DNA of 41,916 bases from a virus. The position numbers were made by a program, and so were the translations under genes. Shown in pieces: positions 3,207-24,835 of this stretch (the stretch's first letter is position 1; each line of letters begins with the position of its first letter). The notes below the pieces were generated by a model. The model saw only the letters and a list, made by a program, of their open reading frames with translations. It searched no databases and had not been told where the DNA came from. The DNA is taken from UHGV virus genome UHGV-0326656, one strand, 5' to 3'.

Positions 3207-4069
3207 AGTATGTCTTTATTGAAAAACATCAGGCTGAGTTCAGCATCAAAGCAATGTGCCGCGTGCTCCGGGTGGCCCGCAGCGGCTGGTATACGTGGTG
3301 TCAGCGGCGGACAAGGATAAGCACGCGTCAGCAGTTCCGCCAACACTGCGACAGCGTTGTCCTCGCGGCTTTTACCCGGTCAAAACAGCGTTACGGTGCC
3401 CCACGCCTGACGGATGAACTGCGTGCTCAGGGTTACCCCTTTAACGTAAAAACCGTGGCGGCAAGCCTGCGCCGTCAGGGACTGAGGGCAAAGGCCTCCC
3501 GGAAGTTCAGCCCGGTCAGCTACCGCGCACACGGCCTGCCTGTGTCAGAAAATCTGTTGGAGCAGGATTTTTACGCCAGTGGCCCGAACCAGAAGTGGGC
3601 AGGAGACATCACGTACTTACGTACAGATGAAGGCTGGCTGTATCTGGCAGTGGTCATTGACCTGTGGTCACGTGCCGTTATTGGCTGGTCAATGTCGCCA
3701 CGCATGACGGCGCAACTGGCCTGCGATGCCCTGCAGATGGCGCTGTGGCGGCGTAAGAGGCCCCGGAACGTTATCGTTCACACGGATCGTGGAGGCCAGT
3801 ACTGTTCAGCAGATTATCAGGCGCAACTGAAGCGGCATAATCTGCGTGGAAGTATGAGCGCAAAAGGTTGCTGCTACGATAATGCCTGCGTGGAAAGCTT
3901 CTTTCATTCGCTGAAAGTGGAATGTATCCATGGAGAACACTTTATCAGCCGGGAAATAATGCGGGCAACGGTGTTTAATTATATCGAATGTGATTACAAT
4001 CGGTGGCGGCGGCACAGTTGGTGTGGCGGCCTCAGTCCGGAACAATTTGAAAACCAGAACCTCGCTTAG
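3203..4069 (+). CDS. insF: IS3 transposase OrfB (DDE catalytic subunit)
   Basis: 288-aa ORF overlapping orfA, with integrase-core motifs (...[10 protein letters not shown]..., ...HTDRGGQY...). Confidence 0.9.
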
Positions 4070-4099
4070 GCCTGTGTCCATATTACGTGGGTAGGATCA

Positions 4100-4525
4100 A
4101 GCTTCATCGCCACGTTCAAATGGTGTGCTGCCAATAGCGGCCATGAATATAGGCTGGCCGTCAGCCCTGCGAATGAAGTAGGGCTGTTTTATAATGCCTT
4201 CGCGCTTCCATTCGAACCAACCATCAGCAAAGCAAATTGCACGTCCATGCAACCAGAGAGGTTTGAACATTCGGCTGGTGGCCGCAGTTTCTGAGCGTGC
4301 GTTAATCAGCGGAGGTTTATTCCACCATCCGGGAGCGAATCCCCAGATAACAGGATCGAGGTGCAACTGTTCGTCGCGTTCGCTCAAAAGCAGAACTTTG
4401 GTACCGGGTGCAACGTTGAATCGTCCAATTGGTTCTGGAACGTATGGGATGTCACGCTCAGCTTCTTCTGATAGGAGGGCAAGATAGTCTTCACGCGTCA
4501 TTGATTGGGCGAAACGTCCGCACAT
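4100..4525 (-). pseudogene. yedK: SRAP (YedK-like), N-terminal part, truncated by IS3
   Basis: MCGRFAQSMTREDYLALL...FMAAIGSTPFERGDEA has the Cys2 catalytic start of SRAP/YedK; the frame runs into the IS3 end. Confidence 0.85.
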
Positions 4526-5478: not shown

Positions 5479-5945
5479 TGGAGGATATTATATTTATGTA
5501 TGCTGGGTTGATAGTGTCTTCTTTAGCGGCAATTGTAGGCTTAGCTACATCTATCATGCATACTCGTAAAAAAGTTAAAGCTAATGAAGAGCTTGCAACT
5601 GAAATGGCAAAGAGCTTTAGTGAGCTTGAATCTATCAATAAAAGCATAGGGGATTTGGAAGCGACAATTAAAAGGATAGATGAAGATGAATTAAAGTTAA
5701 GAATAGCAATTGAATCTTTAAAGGAAATGACTTCTGATGAAAAAAAAGAATCTAGGGATATGTTGAAAAACATCGTTAATGATGAGGTGTTCATTAAAGT
5801 TCTTCTCGAAAGCTATAAAAAACTGGATACCCAGTCAAAGAAGGAGATTTATTTGACTTTTTCCAAGTCGACAGATAGAGGCCTTTATCGATATATAAAA
5901 AGAATAGCTTCATCAGTACTCGATAACTTAATGGTTAAAATATAA
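5478..5945 (+). CDS. hypothetical protein with N-terminal transmembrane helix and charged coiled-coil-like C-terminal region
   Basis: AT-rich; MEDIIFMYAGLIVSSLAAIVGLATSIM then K/E-rich heptad-like sequence; translationally coupled to the upstream ORF. Confidence 0.65.
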   Translation: MEDIIFMYAGLIVSSLAAIVGLATSIMHTRKKVKANEELATEMAKSFSELESINKSIGDLEATIKRIDEDELKLRIAIESLKEMTSDEKKESRDMLKNIVNDEVFIKVLLESYKKLDTQSKKEIYLTFSKSTDRGLYRYIKRIASSVLDNLMVKI

Positions 5946-6500
5946 ATGCGTGCGCGCGAGATACAATTTCTCGCGCATTGTGTAACCGGCGACAAAACCC
6001 TGTTATCATTATAGCGACCCGTTTAGATGGGCCATTTGTGCCCCAACAGCTTCTGGGTATAGATTTCCTCGGCCCTGTATAGATACTTTGCTAAAGAGTA
6101 TTTTAATGGTATTTTGCTTACGTACCATTCTTCTAACGAATGTCTGCCTTATCCTGTGAGCTGCCTTCGCTCAGCATTGGCCTGTTTCTCGTTGATTTAT
6201 ATACTGCGACACTAACATAGGCGGATATGTCCGCTCCTCGCTCATAACAGACATTCACTACAGTTATGGCAGAAAGGTATGCATGCTGGGTGGGGAAAGT
6301 ATGAAGGAAAAGAAAACTGCTGCGCTGTTTGTCGTCACGTTTATCTTCATTGGCTATGCAAGTCATAATACAAGGTGGGACAAAACTGAGACACATAAGG
6401 CCTCACAATGGCTTGCAAGGCTTTACATGTTTTGATGTGGTGGGACGTGTGAGCGCAGTGTTGATGGGGTAATGCTTTGAATTAGAAGCGGATTCTTATA

Positions 6501-16195: not shown

Positions 16196-16581
16196 AGCTG
16201 ATCTTGCCTTTCCCGCCCAGCGTGAACACGTACTGGCGACACCCCAACAAAGGGGCGTTTGCTGGTAAGAGTCTGATAAGCGCGGCGGGGCGAAAATTCC
16301 AGAGCGCGGCGTGCGCAGCAATAGTTGAGCAGTTACGTCGTCTGCCGAAACCAACGTCGGCACCTGCTTCAGTGGAGATCGTGTTGTTTCCTCCGGATAA
16401 CCGGATCCGCGATCTGGACAACTATAACAAGGCGCTGTTTGACGCCCTGACCCACGCGGGTGTGTGGGAAGACGACAGTCAGGTGAAAAGAATGCTGGTG
16501 GAGTGGGGACCGGTTATCCCGGAAGGGAAGGTCGAGATCACTATCAGTAAGTACGAGAAAACGGCGGGTGCAGCCGCCTGA
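16192..16581 (+). CDS. rusA: RusA Holliday-junction resolvase
   Basis: ...DLDNYNKALFDALTHAGVWEDDSQV... RusA catalytic motif, 129 aa. Confidence 0.9.
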   Translation: MKLILPFPPSVNTYWRHPNKGAFAGKSLISAAGRKFQSAACAAIVEQLRRLPKPTSAPASVEIVLFPPDNRIRDLDNYNKALFDALTHAGVWEDDSQVKRMLVEWGPVIPEGKVEITISKYEKTAGAAA

Positions 16582-16600
16582 TCAAGAGGAGAAACGAAGT

Positions 16601-17398
16601 ATGAATAATCTGATGGTCATTGATGGTATTGAAGTTCGTCGTGATACTTATGGGCGTTACAGCCTGAACGATCTGCACAGGGCTGCCGGTTCTCTGGATA
16701 AGCATAAGCCTGCATTCTGGCTCCGCAATGAGCAAACTGAACGTTTAATAAGCGAGTTGCAGATTTGCAACTCGGTCAATATAGAGCCAGTTAACGTTAT
16801 TCGTGGCGGAAATAACCAGGGGACGTATGTCTGCAAAGAACTGGTGTATGCCTATGCAATGTGGATCAGCCCGTCATTCCATCTGAAGGTGATCCGTACT
16901 TTCGACATGGTAACCAGCGCACCGGAAAAATTATCCGGACAGGCTGCTGACAAGATGCAGGCTGGTGTGATTCTGCTGGACTTTATGCGCCGGGAATTAA
17001 ACCTGTCTAACTCTTCAGTGCTTGGTGCCTGTCAGAAGCTTCAGGAGGCTGTTGGCTTACCGAATCTGGCACCGCGCTATGCCATTGATGCTCCTGCTGA
17101 TGCACACGATGGCTCAAGTCGCCCGACACTGTCACTGAGTGCATTGCTGAAACAGTATGGTATCCGCCTGACGGCTAATCAGGCATATCACCAGATGGCG
17201 AAGCTGGGGATCGTCGAACAGCGCGAACGATACAGCCGTACCGCGATTAACAACATTAAAAAATTCTGGTCGCTGACGGCGAAAGGCTGCATGTTCGGCA
17301 AGAACATCACCAGTCCCGCAAATCCGCGCGAGACGCAGCCGCATTTCTTCGAATCCCGGTTCCCTGAGCTGTTAAAGCTGCTCGATACCGTTCATTGA
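16601..17398 (+). CDS. KilA-N domain protein
   Basis: MNNLMVIDGIEVRRDTYGRYSLNDLHRAAG...KPAFWLRNEQT KilA-N/APSES-type N-terminus; AGAGGAG ribosome-binding site. Confidence 0.7.
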   Translation: MNNLMVIDGIEVRRDTYGRYSLNDLHRAAGSLDKHKPAFWLRNEQTERLISELQICNSVNIEPVNVIRGGNNQGTYVCKELVYAYAMWISPSFHLKVIRTFDMVTSAPEKLSGQAADKMQAGVILLDFMRRELNLSNSSVLGACQKLQEAVGLPNLAPRYAIDAPADAHDGSSRPTLSLSALLKQYGIRLTANQAYHQMAKLGIVEQRERYSRTAINNIKKFWSLTAKGCMFGKNITSPANPRETQPHFFESRFPELLKLLDTVH

Positions 17399-17399
17399 G

Positions 17400-18395
17400 G
17401 TGACCGTGAGAGCACTACTGACCCCTGAAATTGCCCCGCGTATGGGGATCGTATTGTTCAGACCAGGTTCAGAGCTGATGCCCCTGTTTATGCAGGGGCG
17501 TGTCCTGCTGGAGCCTGAGCCGGAACGTTATTCATCTTTCCCCAGTGGTGCCGTTCCGGCGGCATCACAACCGCTGGCGGATGATCCTGCCGTTCGGGCC
17601 GTGTTCCGTAATGAGGCAGTGATCCGTCGTGCTGGTGGCGTGGAATGTCTTGAAAGCTGGTTACTTCGTGAAAAAGGCTGCCAGTGGCCTCATTCCGACT
17701 GGCACAGCGAGAACATGACCACAATGCGACACGCGCCGGGCGCGATCCGTCTGTGCTGGCACTGCGATAACCAGCTGCGCGATCAGTTCACGGAACGGCT
17801 GGAATCAATGGCAACGGATAACTGTGCCCGCTGGGTGTTGTCTGTTGTGCGTCGGGATCTCGGTTTTGATGACAGTCACGTTGTGACAATGCCGGAACTG
17901 TGCTGGTGGCTGGTTCGTAATGATCTGGCGGATGCCTTACCGGAAAGCGCAGCCCGTAAGGCACTGAGATTACCGAAGCCTGTTGTGCCGTCTGTCACCC
18001 GGGAAAGTGACCTTGTGCCTTCGGTTCCAGCCACCAGCATCATGCAGGATAAAGCGAAAAAGGTGCTGGCGCTGAAAGTGGAGCCGGAGTCGCCGGAGTC
18101 TTTTATGTTACGCCCCAAACGTCGCCGCTGGGTTAATGAAAAGTACACGCGCTGGGTTAAGACACAGCCGTGTGCATGTTGTGGAAAGCCTGCTGATGAT
18201 CCCCACCACCTGATAGGCCACGGTCAGGGTGGAATGGGTACAAAAGCGCATGACCTTTTTGTGTTGCCTTTGTGCAGAAAGCATCACGACGAGCTGCATG
18301 CGGATACCGTGGCATTTGAAGAGAAGTATGGTTCCCAGCTGGAGCTGATATTTCGTTTTATCGATCGTGCGCTGGCAATAGGCGTACTGGCGTAA
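17400..18395 (+). CDS. DUF968 phage protein (YdfU-like)
   Basis: C-terminal Cys/His cluster CACCGKPADDPHHLIGHGQGGMGTKAHDLFVLPLCRKHHDELH; sits between rusA and Q. Confidence 0.6.
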   Translation: MTVRALLTPEIAPRMGIVLFRPGSELMPLFMQGRVLLEPEPERYSSFPSGAVPAASQPLADDPAVRAVFRNEAVIRRAGGVECLESWLLREKGCQWPHSDWHSENMTTMRHAPGAIRLCWHCDNQLRDQFTERLESMATDNCARWVLSVVRRDLGFDDSHVVTMPELCWWLVRNDLADALPESAARKALRLPKPVVPSVTRESDLVPSVPATSIMQDKAKKVLALKVEPESPESFMLRPKRRRWVNEKYTRWVKTQPCACCGKPADDPHHLIGHGQGGMGTKAHDLFVLPLCRKHHDELHADTVAFEEKYGSQLELIFRFIDRALAIGVLA

Positions 18396-18408: not shown

Positions 18409-19161
18409 ATGAACCTTGAAGCCTTACCGAAATATTACTCCCCGAAATCTCCAAAACTGAGCGATGACGCACCGGCGACAGGCTCTGGTGGTTTAACGAT
18501 TACGGATGTGATGGCTGCGCAGGGGATGGTGCAGTCGAAAGCACCGCTTGGGTTTGCCTTATTCCTGGCAAAAGTTGGTGTTCAGGATCCTCAGTTTGCG
18601 ATTGAAGGTCTGCTCAATTACGCGATGGCACTGGATAACCCGACATTGAATAAATTGAGTGAAGAAACCCGGCTACAGATCATTCCTTACCTTGTGAATT
18701 TTGCCTTTGCTGATTATTCCAGGTCTGCGGCAAGTAAGGCTCGCTGTGAGCATTGTGCTGGTACTGGATTTCATAATGTATTGCGCGAAGTGGTGAAACA
18801 CTCCAGAAGCGGGGAGTCTGTTATCAAGGAAGAGTGGGTGAAGGAACTATGTCAGCATTGTCATGGTAAGGGAGAAGTCAGCACAGCGTGCAGAGGGTGT
18901 AAGGGTAAAGGTATTGTCCTGGATGAAAAAAGAACCCGGCTTCATGGTACGCCTGTTTATAAGATTTGTGGGCGTTGCAATGGAAAACGGTTTAGTCGTT
19001 TACCAACCACACTGGCGCGGCATCATGTCCAGAAACTGGTACCAGACCTGACGGATTATCAGTGGTACAAAGGATATGCAGATGTCATTGATAAACTGGT
19101 TACAAAGTGCTGGCAGGAGGAATCTTACGCTGAAGCACAATTGAGAAAGGTGACAAGATAA
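18409..19161 (+). CDS. late-gene antitermination protein Q
   Basis: 250 aa, MNLEALPKYYSPKSPKLSDDAPATG... with Cys-rich zinc-binding C-terminus; immediately upstream of the late region. Confidence 0.8.
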   Translation: MNLEALPKYYSPKSPKLSDDAPATGSGGLTITDVMAAQGMVQSKAPLGFALFLAKVGVQDPQFAIEGLLNYAMALDNPTLNKLSEETRLQIIPYLVNFAFADYSRSAASKARCEHCAGTGFHNVLREVVKHSRSGESVIKEEWVKELCQHCHGKGEVSTACRGCKGKGIVLDEKRTRLHGTPVYKICGRCNGKRFSRLPTTLARHHVQKLVPDLTDYQWYKGYADVIDKLVTKCWQEESYAEAQLRKVTR

Positions 19162-19363
19162 GTGATCTTCGCCGAAAATGGTGACATCATGCTTGCAATT
19201 TTCAAAAAACATGGATAAGATTTTCTCAACGATGGGCTTTATGTATCTGCTGTTGATAACCTTCAAGAACTCGCCATTGAGCGGGTTTTTTATTGTGTAA
19301 AAACAGAATGACGGTATTAATTAGTAATATAATTATTCGACCATACAACTAGGGGTCGAAAAA

Positions 19364-20149
19364 ATGTATGTTTTTGAGTTAATCAAGCCAGGCAGTAATC
19401 TTAAGTTTGAAAACAGAGAGTTAGAATGGACGTTTAATAACTTATTATCCCATTTAGAAACTGCATTTTATGATGCTAATGTAGCATTAAATTTATTCGA
19501 ACAGGAAAGAACTAAGAATAACAGTAAATTCGATAATATTTCTCAGACATGGCAAGCTGATGTACAGAAACGACAAGCACTGGAAATGCTGGTTCGTAAA
19601 GAGTTTGGTTATCAACCTTATGAATATTCAGAACAGGTTTTTTCAGAGGTCGAGCTACGTCTAAAAAGAGAAAAATGGAATAACGGTGAATATCCGTTGG
19701 CTCATCAACACAGATTGATCTTCTTACATGCAAAATCATTTCTCTACGCTTTGGATGCTATTGATAAATTTTTAAAGGTAATTTCAAAAGAAAATGGCGC
19801 GCCAGAGAACATTAAAAAATTGCATGAACAGCTTTCTAAAGACTTTCCGGATTTAAGAAAGGTAAGGAATTCAGCTCAACACATGGAAGACAGAGTTCGT
19901 GGGCTTGGTGCAGAGAAAGAACCAAAGCCAATAAAACTCAAACCTGTAAATAATATTCATGTTGTTGCACCTCAGGGGGCATTGATGTTGAATAACTTAT
20001 TCGGAACTAAATTTGGGTGCACTATGGCTGATGGCTATTATGGTGAAGTAGATATTTCGACAGAGTCTTTGGCAAAGTTGCAAAATTTAATCCAAAAAGT
20101 TTTTAATTCCTTCAGTTGGGAAGGACCAAAGCAACACCTTCCCCGATAA
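19364..20149 (+). CDS. hypothetical protein, 261 aa, AT-rich moron with an Rx4H (HEPN-like) motif
   Basis: Lies between Q and the holin; motif RNSAQH; followed by its own terminator. Confidence 0.6.
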   Translation: MYVFELIKPGSNLKFENRELEWTFNNLLSHLETAFYDANVALNLFEQERTKNNSKFDNISQTWQADVQKRQALEMLVRKEFGYQPYEYSEQVFSEVELRLKREKWNNGEYPLAHQHRLIFLHAKSFLYALDAIDKFLKVISKENGAPENIKKLHEQLSKDFPDLRKVRNSAQHMEDRVRGLGAEKEPKPIKLKPVNNIHVVAPQGALMLNNLFGTKFGCTMADGYYGEVDISTESLAKLQNLIQKVFNSFSWEGPKQHLPR

Positions 20150-20168
20150 CATTTTCTTTTTTATTGAA

Positions 20169-20196
20169 AGCCGCCAAATAATTGGCGGCTTTTTTA
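20169..20196 (+). terminator. rho-independent terminator after the post-Q moron
   Basis: GCCGCCAA-ATAA-TTGGCGGC followed by TTTTTT. Confidence 0.8.
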
Positions 20197-20238
20197 TTTC
20201 ACAGTACCCGCAAATATCGCGAGGTGAGAGATGACGAA

Positions 20239-20565
20239 ATGCCTCATAACCCAAATACCTGGCTGGACTTGGTCCAGAGCTGGTGGCGTGGAGACACACC
20301 GCTGGGCGCAGTGATTATGTCGATTGTTATGGCTGGCTTGCGCATTGCATATTTTGGCGGTGGTGGGGGCTGGAAACGAAAAACACTCGAGATTTTGCTC
20401 TGTGGTGCTCTGACGCTGACTTTTGCATCCGCTCTTGAGTATGTCGGATGGCCTAAATCTCTTTCTGTTGCCATTGGTGGTGGCGTTGGGTTGATCGGTG
20501 TCGATGCTATTCGTGGGGCTGCAATGAGTGTAATCGGTAATAAGTTTGGTGGCTCTAAGGAGTAA
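20239..20565 (+). CDS. holin
   Basis: Two or three hydrophobic helices (AVIMSIVMAGLRIAYFGG, LEILLCGALTLTFASAL, SVAIGGGVGLIGV), charged C-terminus, directly upstream of the endolysin; the longer ORF in the track begins inside the terminator. Confidence 0.75.
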   Translation: MPHNPNTWLDLVQSWWRGDTPLGAVIMSIVMAGLRIAYFGGGGGWKRKTLEILLCGALTLTFASALEYVGWPKSLSVAIGGGVGLIGVDAIRGAAMSVIGNKFGGSKE

Positions 20566-21632: not shown

Positions 21633-22007
21633 TTAAAGACTATTTAGGAGACTCTGAATAATAGGCCATAAAGTTAATGTGTTTGCACCAGCTGAGTAAA
21701 ATCGCTCCATCAGTTGTAGAGGTGTTGATGACTGATTAAACTTGATATCATTTAAAATGTCGTATATTTCTTGTAGCTTCTCTGCACCAAGTTTATCGTT
21801 AATTTCACTTAAGTTATTTTGTATGGCGATTTCTGCTTCTTTTATAAGCCGAACTGTTTCTGCTGAGTAATGAATATTGTTGGAAAGAAAAGTATTAGCT
21901 GAATCAATAATTTCATAACCAACATCAGCACCAAATGATTTGTTTCCAATTATTTTGATGTTTTCGCATCCCTCAATGCGATAAGCAACGGTTTTCTTTT
22001 CACTCAT
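21633..22007 (-). CDS. hypothetical protein, 124 aa, AT-rich reverse-strand moron
   Basis: Minus-strand ORF between Rz1 and HNH, the slot lambda uses for bor; AT-rich flanks; no signal peptide or recognisable family. Confidence 0.55.
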   Translation of the reverse strand: MSEKKTVAYRIEGCENIKIIGNKSFGADVGYEIIDSANTFLSNNIHYSAETVRLIKEAEIAIQNNLSEINDKLGAEKLQEIYDILNDIKFNQSSTPLQLMERFYSAGANTLTLWPIIQSLLNSL

Positions 22008-22134: not shown

Positions 22135-22485
22135 ATGCCAGCACTGATACCTAGAGCCTGCCGTGTTCGCGGCTGCCACCATACCACTACTGACCCGTCA
22201 GGCTATTGTGAAAGCCATAAAAGCGAAGGCTGGAAGCAATACAAGCCAGGCCAGTCCCGTCATCAGCGCGGCTACGGTTCGAAGTGGGACAGTATCCGCG
22301 CGCGCGTCCTGAAGCGTGACAAAGGTTTATGTCAGTTATGTCTGCGTGCCGGTGTGGTGCGTGAAGCTAAAACCGTTGACCACATCATCCCTAAAGCGCA
22401 TGGCGGCACCGATGCAGACAGTAATCTGCAGAGCCTGTGCTGGCCGTGCCATAAGACGAAGACGGCCCGTGAACGGCTAAAGTGA
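22135..22485 (+). CDS. HNH endonuclease (terminase-associated)
   Basis: Cys-rich N-terminus and ...VDHIIPKAHGGTDADSNLQSLCWPCH... HNH motif; directly upstream of terminase genes. Confidence 0.9.
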   Translation: MPALIPRACRVRGCHHTTTDPSGYCESHKSEGWKQYKPGQSRHQRGYGSKWDSIRARVLKRDKGLCQLCLRAGVVREAKTVDHIIPKAHGGTDADSNLQSLCWPCHKTKTARERLK

Positions 22486-22572: not shown

Positions 22573-22610
22573 TACCCGCGAAAAATGAAATTTAACCAGG
22601 AGTGCCGCAT

Positions 22611-23105
22611 ATGGCTGGAACGGCGGGGCGTTCCGGGCGTCGCCCCAAGCCAACGGCGCGCAAGGCGCTGGCCGGAAACCCCGGCAAGCGAGCCCTGAAC
22701 AAAGATGAACCTGTTTTTACGCCCATCAAAGGTGTTGAGCCACCGGAGTGGTTCGCAGAAGAAGATCTCCCTCTCGCCACGATCATGTGGCAACTGACAA
22801 CCAAAGAACTCTGCGGTCAGGGCCTGCTGTGCGTGACTGACCTGGCGGTACTTGAGCGGTGGTGCGTGGCCTATGAGTTCTGGCGACGTGCCGTGAAAAA
22901 TATTGCCAGACAGGGCAACACCATCACCGGTGCAATGGGCGGCATGGTCAAAAATCCGGAGCTGACCGCCAAAAAAGAACAGGAGTCCGAGATGAGCAGT
23001 ACGGGGGCAATGCTCGGACTCGACCCCAGCAGCCGCCAGCGTCTGATTGGCCTGGCGGGGCAGAAGAAAGCCACTAACCCGTTTCTGAAAATCATCGAAT
23101 CATGA
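22611..23105 (+). CDS. terminase small subunit
   Basis: 164 aa, basic N-terminus, AGGAG ribosome-binding site 9 nt upstream; immediately precedes the large subunit. Confidence 0.8.
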
Positions 23106-24835
23106 GCCGGAAATCTTACCCCAACGTAAATGCTGCCAATCAGTATGCCCGTGATGTCGTGCGCGGAAAGATTGTGGCCTGCCAGTTTGTGATTCAGGCC
23201 TGCCAGCGCCATCTTGATGACCTGATGGAGGAAAAAAGTAAGTCGTTTCGTTACCGCTTCGACAAGGACCTGGCTGAACGGGCCGCGAAATTTATTCAGC
23301 TGTTGCCGCACACCAAGGGTGAGTGGGCATTTAAGAGGATGCCCATCACGCTGGAGCCGTGGCAGCTCTTTGTGATCTGCTGCGCGTTTGGCTGGGTCAA
23401 TAAAGGCTCCCGGCTGCGCCGCTTCCGTGAGGTGTATACCGAAATCCCCCGTAAGAACGGCAAATCGGCAATCTCTGCCGGTGTCGCCCTGTATTGTTTT
23501 GCCTGTGATAACGAGTTCGGCGCGGAAGTGTATTCCGGTGCCACGACGGAGAAACAGGCATGGGAAGTCTTTCGTCCGGCAAGACTGATGTGTAAACGCA
23601 CACCCATGCTGACGGAAGCGTTCGGGATTGAGGTTAACGCCTCAAACATGAACCGTCCGGAGGATGGTGCGCGTTTTGAACCGCTGATCGGTAACCCCGG
23701 TGATGGTTCATCACCCCACTGTGCGGTGGTGGATGAATATCACGAGCACGCCACAGATGCGCTTTACACCACGATGCTTACCGGGATGGGGGCGCGACGT
23801 CAGCCACTGATGTGGGCTATCACTACCGCCGGGTACAACATTGAGGGGCCGTGCTACGACAAACGGCGGGAAGTCATCGAGATGCTCAACGGCTCGGTGC
23901 CTAACGATGAACTGTTCGGGATCATCTATACCGTTGATGAAGGTGACGACTGGACCGACCCGCAGGTGCTGGAAAAAGCCAATCCAAATATTGGCGTGTC
24001 GGTTTATCGCGAATTTTTGTTAAGTCAGCAGCAGCGTGCGAAAAATAACGCCCGTCTGGCAAACGTCTTTAAAACAAAACACCTCAATATCTGGGTGTCG
24101 GCGCGTTCGGCGTATTTCAACCTGGTGAGCTGGCAGAGCTGCGAGGATAAATCACTGACCCTTGAGCAGTTCGAGGGGCAGCCGTGCATTCTGGCCTTTG
24201 ACCTGGCGCGTAAGCTGGATATGAACAGCATGGCGCGACTTTATACCCGCGAGATTGACGGTAAAACGCATTACTACAGTGTGGCCCCGCGTTTCTGGGT
24301 ACCGTATGACACGGTGTACAGCGTCGAGAAAAATGAAGATCGACGGACAGCCGAACGCTTTCAGAAATGGGTGGAAATGGGCGTTCTGACCGTTACCGAT
24401 GGTGCGGAGGTGGATTATCGCTACATCCTCGAGGAGGCCAAAGCGGCGAACAAAATCAGCCCGGTCAGTGAGTCACCCATCGACCCCTTCGGGGCGACCG
24501 GGTTGTCACATGACCTTGCTGATGAAGACCTGAACCCCATCACTATCATTCAGAACTACACCAACATGTCCGACCCGATGAAAGAGCTGGAAGCGGCAAT
24601 TGAATCGGGGCGCTTTCATCATGATGGCAATCCCATCATGACCTGGTGTATCGGCAACGTGGTCGGCAAAACCATTCCGGGTAACGATGATGTGGTGAAG
24701 CCCGTCAAAGAGCAGGCGGAAAACAAAATCGATGGTGCAGTTGCGCTGATTATGGCGGTTGGCAGAGCCATGCTGTATGAGAAAGAAGACACTCTGTCCG
24801 ACCACATTGAGTCCTACGGGATCCGCTCGCTTTAA
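23102..24835 (+). CDS. terminase large subunit
   Basis: 577 aa with Walker A-like EIPRKNGKS and nuclease-domain acidic residues. Confidence 0.9.

Follow-up and report, generated by a model that had tools for sequence, protein, structure and literature searches.

HepS, the single-protein 'HEPN Solo' abortive-infection defence of the Gifsy-1 prophage, is a tetramer in its resting state, with R and H buried; its activator is the tail-tip protein J, and its target the anticodon loops of tRNA, which it cleaves (PMC13043305). HepS and Tha, the latter from a Staphylococcus prophage (PMC11087260), are prophage-borne HEPN defences activated by phage tail proteins, and Tha is repressed during its prophage's own lytic cycle (PMC13043305, discussion). 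HEPN proteins are defined by an Rx4-6H motif in which a polar residue (N, D or H) follows the R, often accompanied by an upstream acidic Ex3[KR] on helix 2; the Rx4-6H sits at the end of helix 3, often in a non-helical region, and the upstream acidic residue is found in 'many' HEPN families, not all (Anantharaman et al., PMC3710099). The closest known systems further include AbiU2 (PF18734), AbiV (PF18728) and AbiD/F, and the integron-cassette HEPN family (PDB 3jrt, Vpc_cass2; Anantharaman et al. 2013). Here, a stretch of viral DNA of 41,916 nucleotides, UHGV virus genome UHGV-0326656 (hereafter the window), is analysed with regard to a single gene. This open reading frame (ORF) of 261 amino acids (aa) begins with ATG, spans positions 19364-20149 on the forward strand and belongs to an uncharacterised family, PHROG 5322. 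Judged from its sequence, a structural model and analogy, the protein may be a new stand-alone HEPN-like ribonuclease (RNase) acting in abortive infection (Abi), a reading to which we assign a probability of about 0.5. A conflict or defence role of whatever biochemical kind is likely.

Like HepS, the protein stands alone, without a partner gene, in an accessory slot of a lambdoid prophage, and carries an Rx4-6H motif. By analogy, the expected logic would also be the same: inactivity at rest, a phage protein as trigger and cleavage of RNA. The two differ in architecture, with the HepS motif at residues 100-105 and an extra helical arm and a C-terminal β-domain in the protein described here. No sequence relationship to HepS is detectable: searched with the family profile, PDB yields no chain below E 0.02. 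The hepS gene is missing from the LT2 Gifsy-1 record, in which STM2620 is an unrelated protein. Shared with Tha would be a defence by a HEPN RNase that a prophage encodes and a phage structural protein activates; Tha is a different system from another phylum. AbiU2, AbiV and AbiD/F share with the present gene the form of a single-gene, or nearly single-gene, Abi determinant with Rx4-6H on mobile elements, and AbiU2 and AbiV genes adjoin or lie near members of this family; the profile comparisons given below nevertheless find no relation to AbiU2 or AbiV. If the HEPN reading holds, the protein would represent a new family within a known kind, the solo HEPN defence proteins, and not a new kind of system.

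Conservation of the motif across divergent homologues

The sequence-only reading had matched RNSAQH in this protein to the Rx4-6H signature, while conceding that one short motif is weak evidence, and it was right in both respects. RNSAQH occupies residues 168-173 (DNA 19865-19882). In 20,000 shuffles of the protein, Rx4H occurs by chance in 32%, Rx4-6H in 68% and R[NDH]x3H in 5%, and within this single sequence the Rx4H is not significant and is nearly meaningless. A second Rx4H, RLIFLH, extends from R117 to H122 (19712-19729), and its R is retained in 44 and its H in 48 of 139 family members; this unconserved copy indicates that a bare Rx4H arises easily by chance. The RNSAQH motif gains its meaning because it is conserved across divergent homologues.

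The 375 close homologues are, without exception, annotated as hypothetical. A full scan with a hidden Markov model (HMM) over 1.8 billion representatives recovers 990 clusters (50% identity) at E ≤ 0.001, with 450 at E ≤ 1e-30. Nearly all members are 250-280 aa long, and the matches run from end to end. That the ORF had arisen by chance was rejected on the strength of the 990 homologous clusters. Conservation was assessed in an alignment of 139 representatives with a pairwise identity of at most about 50%. Of the 139, 137 retain R168 and 137 retain H173. At position 169, N (104) and D (34) together account for 138. After the histidine, E or D at position 175 (138/139), D or E at 176 (133/139) and R177 (134/139) are nearly invariant. 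Together these residues form a family signature, R-[ND]-[ST]-x-x-H-x-[ED]-[DE]-R. Upstream, on the helix of residues 112-142, lies a Dx3[K/R] that resembles the acidic HEPN element, with D131 conserved in 127 and K or R at position 135 in 122 of the 139; its acidic residue is D rather than E. Relatives from Deinococcus (RSAALHPEDR) and Azospirillum (RDSIQHTHER) keep Rx4H and lack D131. Three sequence hallmarks of HEPN are found in the family: a conserved Rx4-6H, a polar residue after the R and an upstream acidic Dx3[K/R].

Searches of the literature by accession, PHROG identifier, locus tag and keywords return no description of the family. It is previously undescribed and has no Pfam, NCBIfam or PADLOC model.

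Predicted structure and minimal relatives

The AlphaFold2 model, built with a 48-sequence alignment, has a mean predicted local distance difference test (pLDDT) score of 89 and a predicted template modelling (pTM) score of 0.81, and consists of a helical bundle and a small β-domain. A short N-terminal hairpin is followed by helices 18-81, 89-106, 112-142, 149-160 and 164-168; beyond the motif come a short helix (174-178), a β-rich stretch and a helix at 233-249. Helix 164-168 ends with R168, after which residues 169-173 continue as coil; this is the segment of lowest confidence (61-78). The fold comparison by Foldseek that the sequence-only reading had put forward as a check gives no match for the whole-protein fold in PDB or BFVD. 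The predicted helical bundle is compatible with HEPN, yet does not discriminate HEPN from generic four-helix bundles.

A search of phage genomes by tblastn yields a sole match, a 204-aa protein of Marinitoga phages, encoded between tape-measure and tail genes (in phage MPV1, L023, at 3911-4525). It carries the motif RNSIAHFEDR and Dx3K, and aligns to the family profile with an hhalign probability of 97.4% over residues 103-188. The helical arm, about residues 49-99 of the query, is absent from this protein and likewise from the Azospirillum relative. The Marinitoga protein has counterparts of the first helix, of the helices with Dx3K and with the motif, of the β-stretch and of the C-terminal helix. 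The reduced form of these relatives suggests a four-helix core of residues 18-48, 112-142, 149-168 and 233-249, interrupted by an arm (about 49-106) and by a β-domain (about 190-230). The order of elements in this core would be that of HEPN. The Marinitoga branch comprises just three proteins, none with a Pfam annotation, and offers no stepping stone to a known family.

Comparison with known HEPN families

Several searches fail to link the protein to a recognised HEPN family. Scans of the protein, of 48 members and of 139 members against Pfam return no family and no HEPN model, and the NCBIfam scan likewise returns none. PADLOC, applied to the protein and its homologues, finds nothing recurrent; its single CARF_HEPN match (E 0.005) occurs in one of the 139. 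Sequence searches of PDB with the single protein and two profiles give nothing below E 0.02, and the weak matches to choline kinase, SRP54 and 2ap3, none of them a HEPN protein, were set aside as noise. With hhalign, the probability against a 40-sequence AbiU2 alignment is 0.3%, and single AbiU2 and AbiV sequences show no relation. The family matches PHROG 5322, whose function is unassigned. To our knowledge, HEPN families are mutually undetectable by sequence, and for this reason the failed profile matches weigh little. They lower the case for membership of a recognised HEPN family more than the case for a protein that works like a HEPN RNase.

These failures are nonetheless what a mobile-element conflict or defence protein of non-HEPN type would be expected to give. 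In that case R168, H173, E175, D176 and R177 would form another catalytic or ligand site, such as that of a metal-dependent nuclease or a phosphodiesterase, or a sensor surface, and the helical bundle would serve as scaffold. The invariant E/D-D/E-R that follows the histidine lies outside the HEPN definition and could bind metal, the whole-protein fold has no Foldseek counterpart, and the genomic contexts point to conflict systems. On the other side, R-[ND]-x3-H at a helix end, combined with an upstream Dx3[K/R], is what HEPN predicts, and the missing profile link counts for little among HEPN families. This alternative is possible, though rather unlikely.

The abortive-infection or toxin role of HEPN type proposed by the sequence-only reading is sustained in part. 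The conserved HEPN hallmarks and the mobile, solo contexts favour it; a profile link to a HEPN family in Pfam, PADLOC, NCBIfam or PDB and a toxin-antitoxin (TA) partner were both sought and not found. The analysis shows the gene, the limits of its cassette, the family with its conserved motifs, a helical-bundle model, solo mobile contexts and a strong preference for the slot between Q and the holin; that the protein is homologous to HEPN, cleaves RNA, forms oligomers, responds to a trigger and confers defence is inferred by analogy.

An independent insertion between Q and the lysis genes

The gene occupies the slot that holds stx in Shiga toxin phages, with Q upstream and a holin, a GH24 lysozyme and Rz/Rz1 downstream, as the sequence-only reading had placed it. 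Its view of the ORF as an AT-rich, separately inserted gene that ends in a strong terminator is also borne out. The GC content of the whole gene is 0.36, against 0.50 for the 3 kb on either side; by region it is 0.32-0.38 over the ORF and 0.47-0.59 in the flanks. The terminator, read earlier as 20169-20196, is essentially that described in Table 1.

The ORF is present in only 22 of 5426 complete E. coli genomes, in which the Q gene and leader are common. In the E. coli genomes, homology on the Q side stops at 19240-19291 and homology on the holin side starts at 20187-20219. Alignment of the window with two related prophages places the breakpoints more closely. The leader, with a PR'-like candidate and a tR'-like terminator, is common to all three; divergence starts right after the T-run of the tR'-like terminator (~19294), and the sequences become alike again from the T-run of the second terminator (~20190). 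These two points set the limits of the cassette at about 19295-20189, and confirm that it is an independent insertion. The related E. coli prophages carry alternative cargo in the same slot: a DNA methyltransferase with a 67-aa ORF in one (L014, 1507-2913), and a 111-aa hypothetical protein in the other (L015, 1439-1774). Each cargo has its own terminator hairpin, while the flanking T-run is common. Among phage records, a nucleotide search matches only phage Tritos, over 84 nt of the Q leader. In its foreign composition, its own terminator and its presence/absence polymorphism among related prophages, the cassette resembles a moron, with a bare TATAAT as the candidate for a promoter of its own.

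Genomic contexts of the homologues

The gene is solo in every context, and no neighbour is shared across about 15 contexts. It lies between Q and the holin in E. coli, in four Klebsiella prophage backgrounds with three Q families (protein 61% identical) and in Citrobacter (49%). A scan of IMG/VR yields 55 loci with 33-100% identity, of which 45 are non-redundant; two ORFs were called on each side of the gene. Q lies within two ORFs upstream in 30 of the 45, a holin within two downstream in 31, and both in 26; four further loci have DUF968 and an unclassified Q-sized ORF upstream and a holin downstream. Pfam assigns these neighbours to three or four families of Q and to five of holins. The strong conservation of this placement is the least expected feature of the family. 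In 26 of the 45 viral loci, one of the two ORFs called upstream belongs to DUF968, which indicates that many such prophages share a backbone of DUF968, Q, cargo and holin.

Elsewhere, several of its neighbours are conflict genes. In the superintegron of Vibrio parahaemolyticus it resides in a cassette array that also holds a HEPN_AbiV cassette, and in a Pseudomonas island it directly follows HEPN_AbiU2 and precedes AAA_21/RloB. It accompanies a SIR2-like gene in an integrase/VapE island of Aeromonas, adjoins AbiEii and a PIN toxin pair on an Acinetobacter plasmid, occurs with RelE/ParE on a 7.4-kb plasmid of A. baumannii, and adjoins DUF262 and HipA in Azospirillum. A prophage of Andreprevotia has it flanked by tail-completion and major-tail genes, and the Chromobacterium copy is an orphan chromosomal insertion. 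The Psychrobacter plasmid pA53P1 (L021, 4168 bp) carries, besides the homologue, only rep, mobA (relaxase) and mobC; as sole cargo there, the solo, partner-less protein is evidently tolerated by the cell. The GC content of the gene is 13-15 points below that of its surroundings in E. coli, Klebsiella, Citrobacter, Chromobacterium and Andreprevotia. Homologues are also found in Limnobacter, and the family extends over Proteobacteria, reaching Deinococcus and Thermotogae phages. A defence role is supported by this context, that is, by the AbiU2, AbiV, AbiEii, SIR2, AAA_21/RloB, DUF262 and TA neighbours together with the prophage moron slots.

A near-identical stretch, GCGTTGCTCACACCTTAA..., lies just 5' of the ATG in Vibrio (L009) and Aeromonas (L010), at about 5940-6000 in each. 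It resembles part of an integron attC site, and for this reason the Aeromonas copy of the gene may be cassette-derived.

The conserved placement is the main argument for a late protein that serves the phage's own lytic cycle, as an RNase for host shut-off, a processor of late transcripts or an accessory of lysis timing. About two-thirds of the 45 viral loci have the gene between the Q leader and the holin, a pattern that spans several families of Q and of holin and holds at protein identities as low as 33%; a consensus scan finds no convincing promoter of its own, and from lambda biology its transcription under Q antitermination can be taken as certain. Homologues are, however, found without a late operon or lysis cassette, in an integron array, on 4-8 kb plasmids, in chromosomal islands and as an orphan insertion. 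The other cargo of closely related prophages and the rarity of the gene in E. coli likewise speak against such a role, which is improbable. The homologues far from lysis cassettes argue against any lysis-specific role, and on this ground the candidate of a lysis gene was rejected.

The plasmid and integron contexts could equally suit an addiction or stress toxin that stabilises a mobile element or induces dormancy, with no anti-phage role. Members of the family are found on very small plasmids and in integron cassettes and adjoin TA modules, and dormancy-inducing RNases have been proposed for integron HEPN cassettes (Anantharaman et al.). No conserved neighbouring antitoxin is found in any context examined, though, and pA53P1 has no gene that could supply one beyond its rep, mobA and mobC. 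On its own, a toxin that is constitutively active could not be maintained; it would need a trigger, which is the logic of Abi. A role of this kind is distinctly improbable. The absence of a conserved partner gene argues against a classical TA pair; the candidate of a TA toxin was rejected on this ground. In the E. coli cassette, too, the gene stands alone, with only about 70 nt between tR' and the ATG.

In lambdoid phages, stx and other cargo in the slot between Q and S are read by Q-modified polymerase. The present gene resembles them in being foreign and in lying downstream of PR'/tR' and upstream of the holin. It differs in having no sequence relation, and no likely functional relation, to stx, and in encoding a protein that is presumably cytoplasmic. 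That the gene is virulence cargo acting on a eukaryotic host is, despite the shared slot, extremely unlikely, given that the protein has no signal peptide or hydrophobic N-terminus and no similarity to any toxin family, and that its homologues extend to environmental bacteria and to a phage of Thermotogae (Chromobacterium, Limnobacter, Andreprevotia, Psychrobacter, Deinococcus, Marinitoga).

Proposed mechanism

As a HEPN-like Abi RNase, the protein would be cytoplasmic. The analogy with solo HEPN defence proteins suggests that it would rest in the lysogen, inactive and oligomeric, until a component of an invading phage switched it on. The activated protein would then cleave RNA (tRNA, mRNA or rRNA) without a metal, thereby stopping translation and aborting the infection. 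The gene would travel as a self-terminated moron just after the leader of the Q-dependent late promoter. The terminator of the cassette presumably insulates the holin, keeping lysogenic transcription out of it; once the prophage itself entered its late phase, Q-modified polymerase would pass this terminator. From its position behind PR'/tR', the gene must be transcribed by Q-modified polymerase in that phase. It follows that the protein must tolerate or exploit the lytic cycle of the resident phage, which raises the question of how a prophage could live with an Abi RNase whose expression its late transcription makes unavoidable.

If this reading is true, about a thousand sequence clusters would join the one-protein phage-defence RNases such as HepS. 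They would form a defence family that current defence-finding tools miss, since none of Pfam, NCBIfam and PADLOC models it. In enterobacterial lambdoid prophages, the Q-to-holin slot, familiar from Shiga toxin, would be a recurrent home of immunity genes. A bolder version is doubtful: the protein would found a widespread and so far unrecognised family of single-protein immune RNases whose HEPN topology is new, with a helical arm and a β-domain breaking up the four-helix core. The placement of the gene in the Q operon would then be functional and not just a convenient site, giving a late-phase boost against co-infecting or co-resident phages or allowing late phage proteins to be sensed.

Features of the cassette and its surroundings

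The coordinates of the cassette, its signals and its immediate neighbours are collected in Table 1. The PR'-like candidate would, by analogy with lambda PR', function as the late promoter. A promoter within the cassette is possible only, and unproven: the TATAAT upstream of the ATG lacks a good -35, and the consensus scan finds no full sigma-70 site there. In the Klebsiella copies, a TATAAT with a weak -35 likewise lies upstream of the gene. The homologous morons of Klebsiella and Citrobacter are also closed by a hairpin and T-run.

Table 1 Features in and around the cassette, in window coordinates
Feature	Position	Strand	Basis
Q antiterminator gene, left neighbour of the slot	18409..19161	+	PF03589 Antiterm, E 1e-53; phrog_127; RefSeq 'antitermination protein'
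PR'-like late promoter candidate, GTGACA-18-GAAAAT	19150..19179	+	Consensus match only; in the leader conserved among prophages with this Q
tR'-like intrinsic terminator, end of the conserved Q leader	19265..19296	+	10-pair hairpin and T-run
Cargo cassette (moron), 895 bp	about 19295..20189		Breakpoints against related prophages; GC 0.36 against 0.50
Perfect TATAAT, 30 nt 5' of the ATG; possible own promoter	19328..19333	+	Read from the sequence
Shine-Dalgarno-like AGGGG, 8 nt 5' of the ATG	19351..19355	+	Read from the sequence
D131-x3-K135, like the acidic Ex3[KR] of HEPN type, on helix 112-142	19754..19768	+	D131 127/139; K/R135 122/139
Family signature, here R168-N-S-A-Q-H173-M-E-D-R177	19865..19894	+	139-member alignment
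Strong intrinsic terminator closing the cassette	20166..20199	+	12-pair hairpin (6 GC) at 20166-20193, then T-run; -14.1 kcal/mol
Lambda-family holin, right neighbour	20239..20565	+	PF05106, E 9e-25; RefSeq coordinates transferred

Directly 5' of Q, a DUF968/HNHc_6 gene spans 17400-18395. Beyond the lysis genes, an HNH endonuclease adjoins a P27-family small terminase and a large terminase (22135-22485 and 22602-24835), and the window further contains e14-like ymfL/ymfR genes and a KilA-N gene (16568-17398). From the HNH/P27 terminase genes together with the e14-like ymfL/ymfR and KilA-N genes, the window is a mosaic lambdoid prophage.

A second AT-rich orphan gene, of 124 aa and with a GC content of 0.31-0.35, lies on the reverse strand at 21633-22007, with Rz/Rz1 on one side and the HNH/terminase genes on the other. 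No Pfam, PADLOC or PHROG family covers it, tblastn finds no match in the phage or plasmid collections, and 15 of 5426 E. coli genomes carry it. The Tai genes, which provide defence by tail-assembly interference, are reported upstream of the packaging module on the strand opposite to the late operon (PMC11364771). Although it matches no phage record in sequence, so that no sequence link to Tai was found, the orphan gene occupies the same place.
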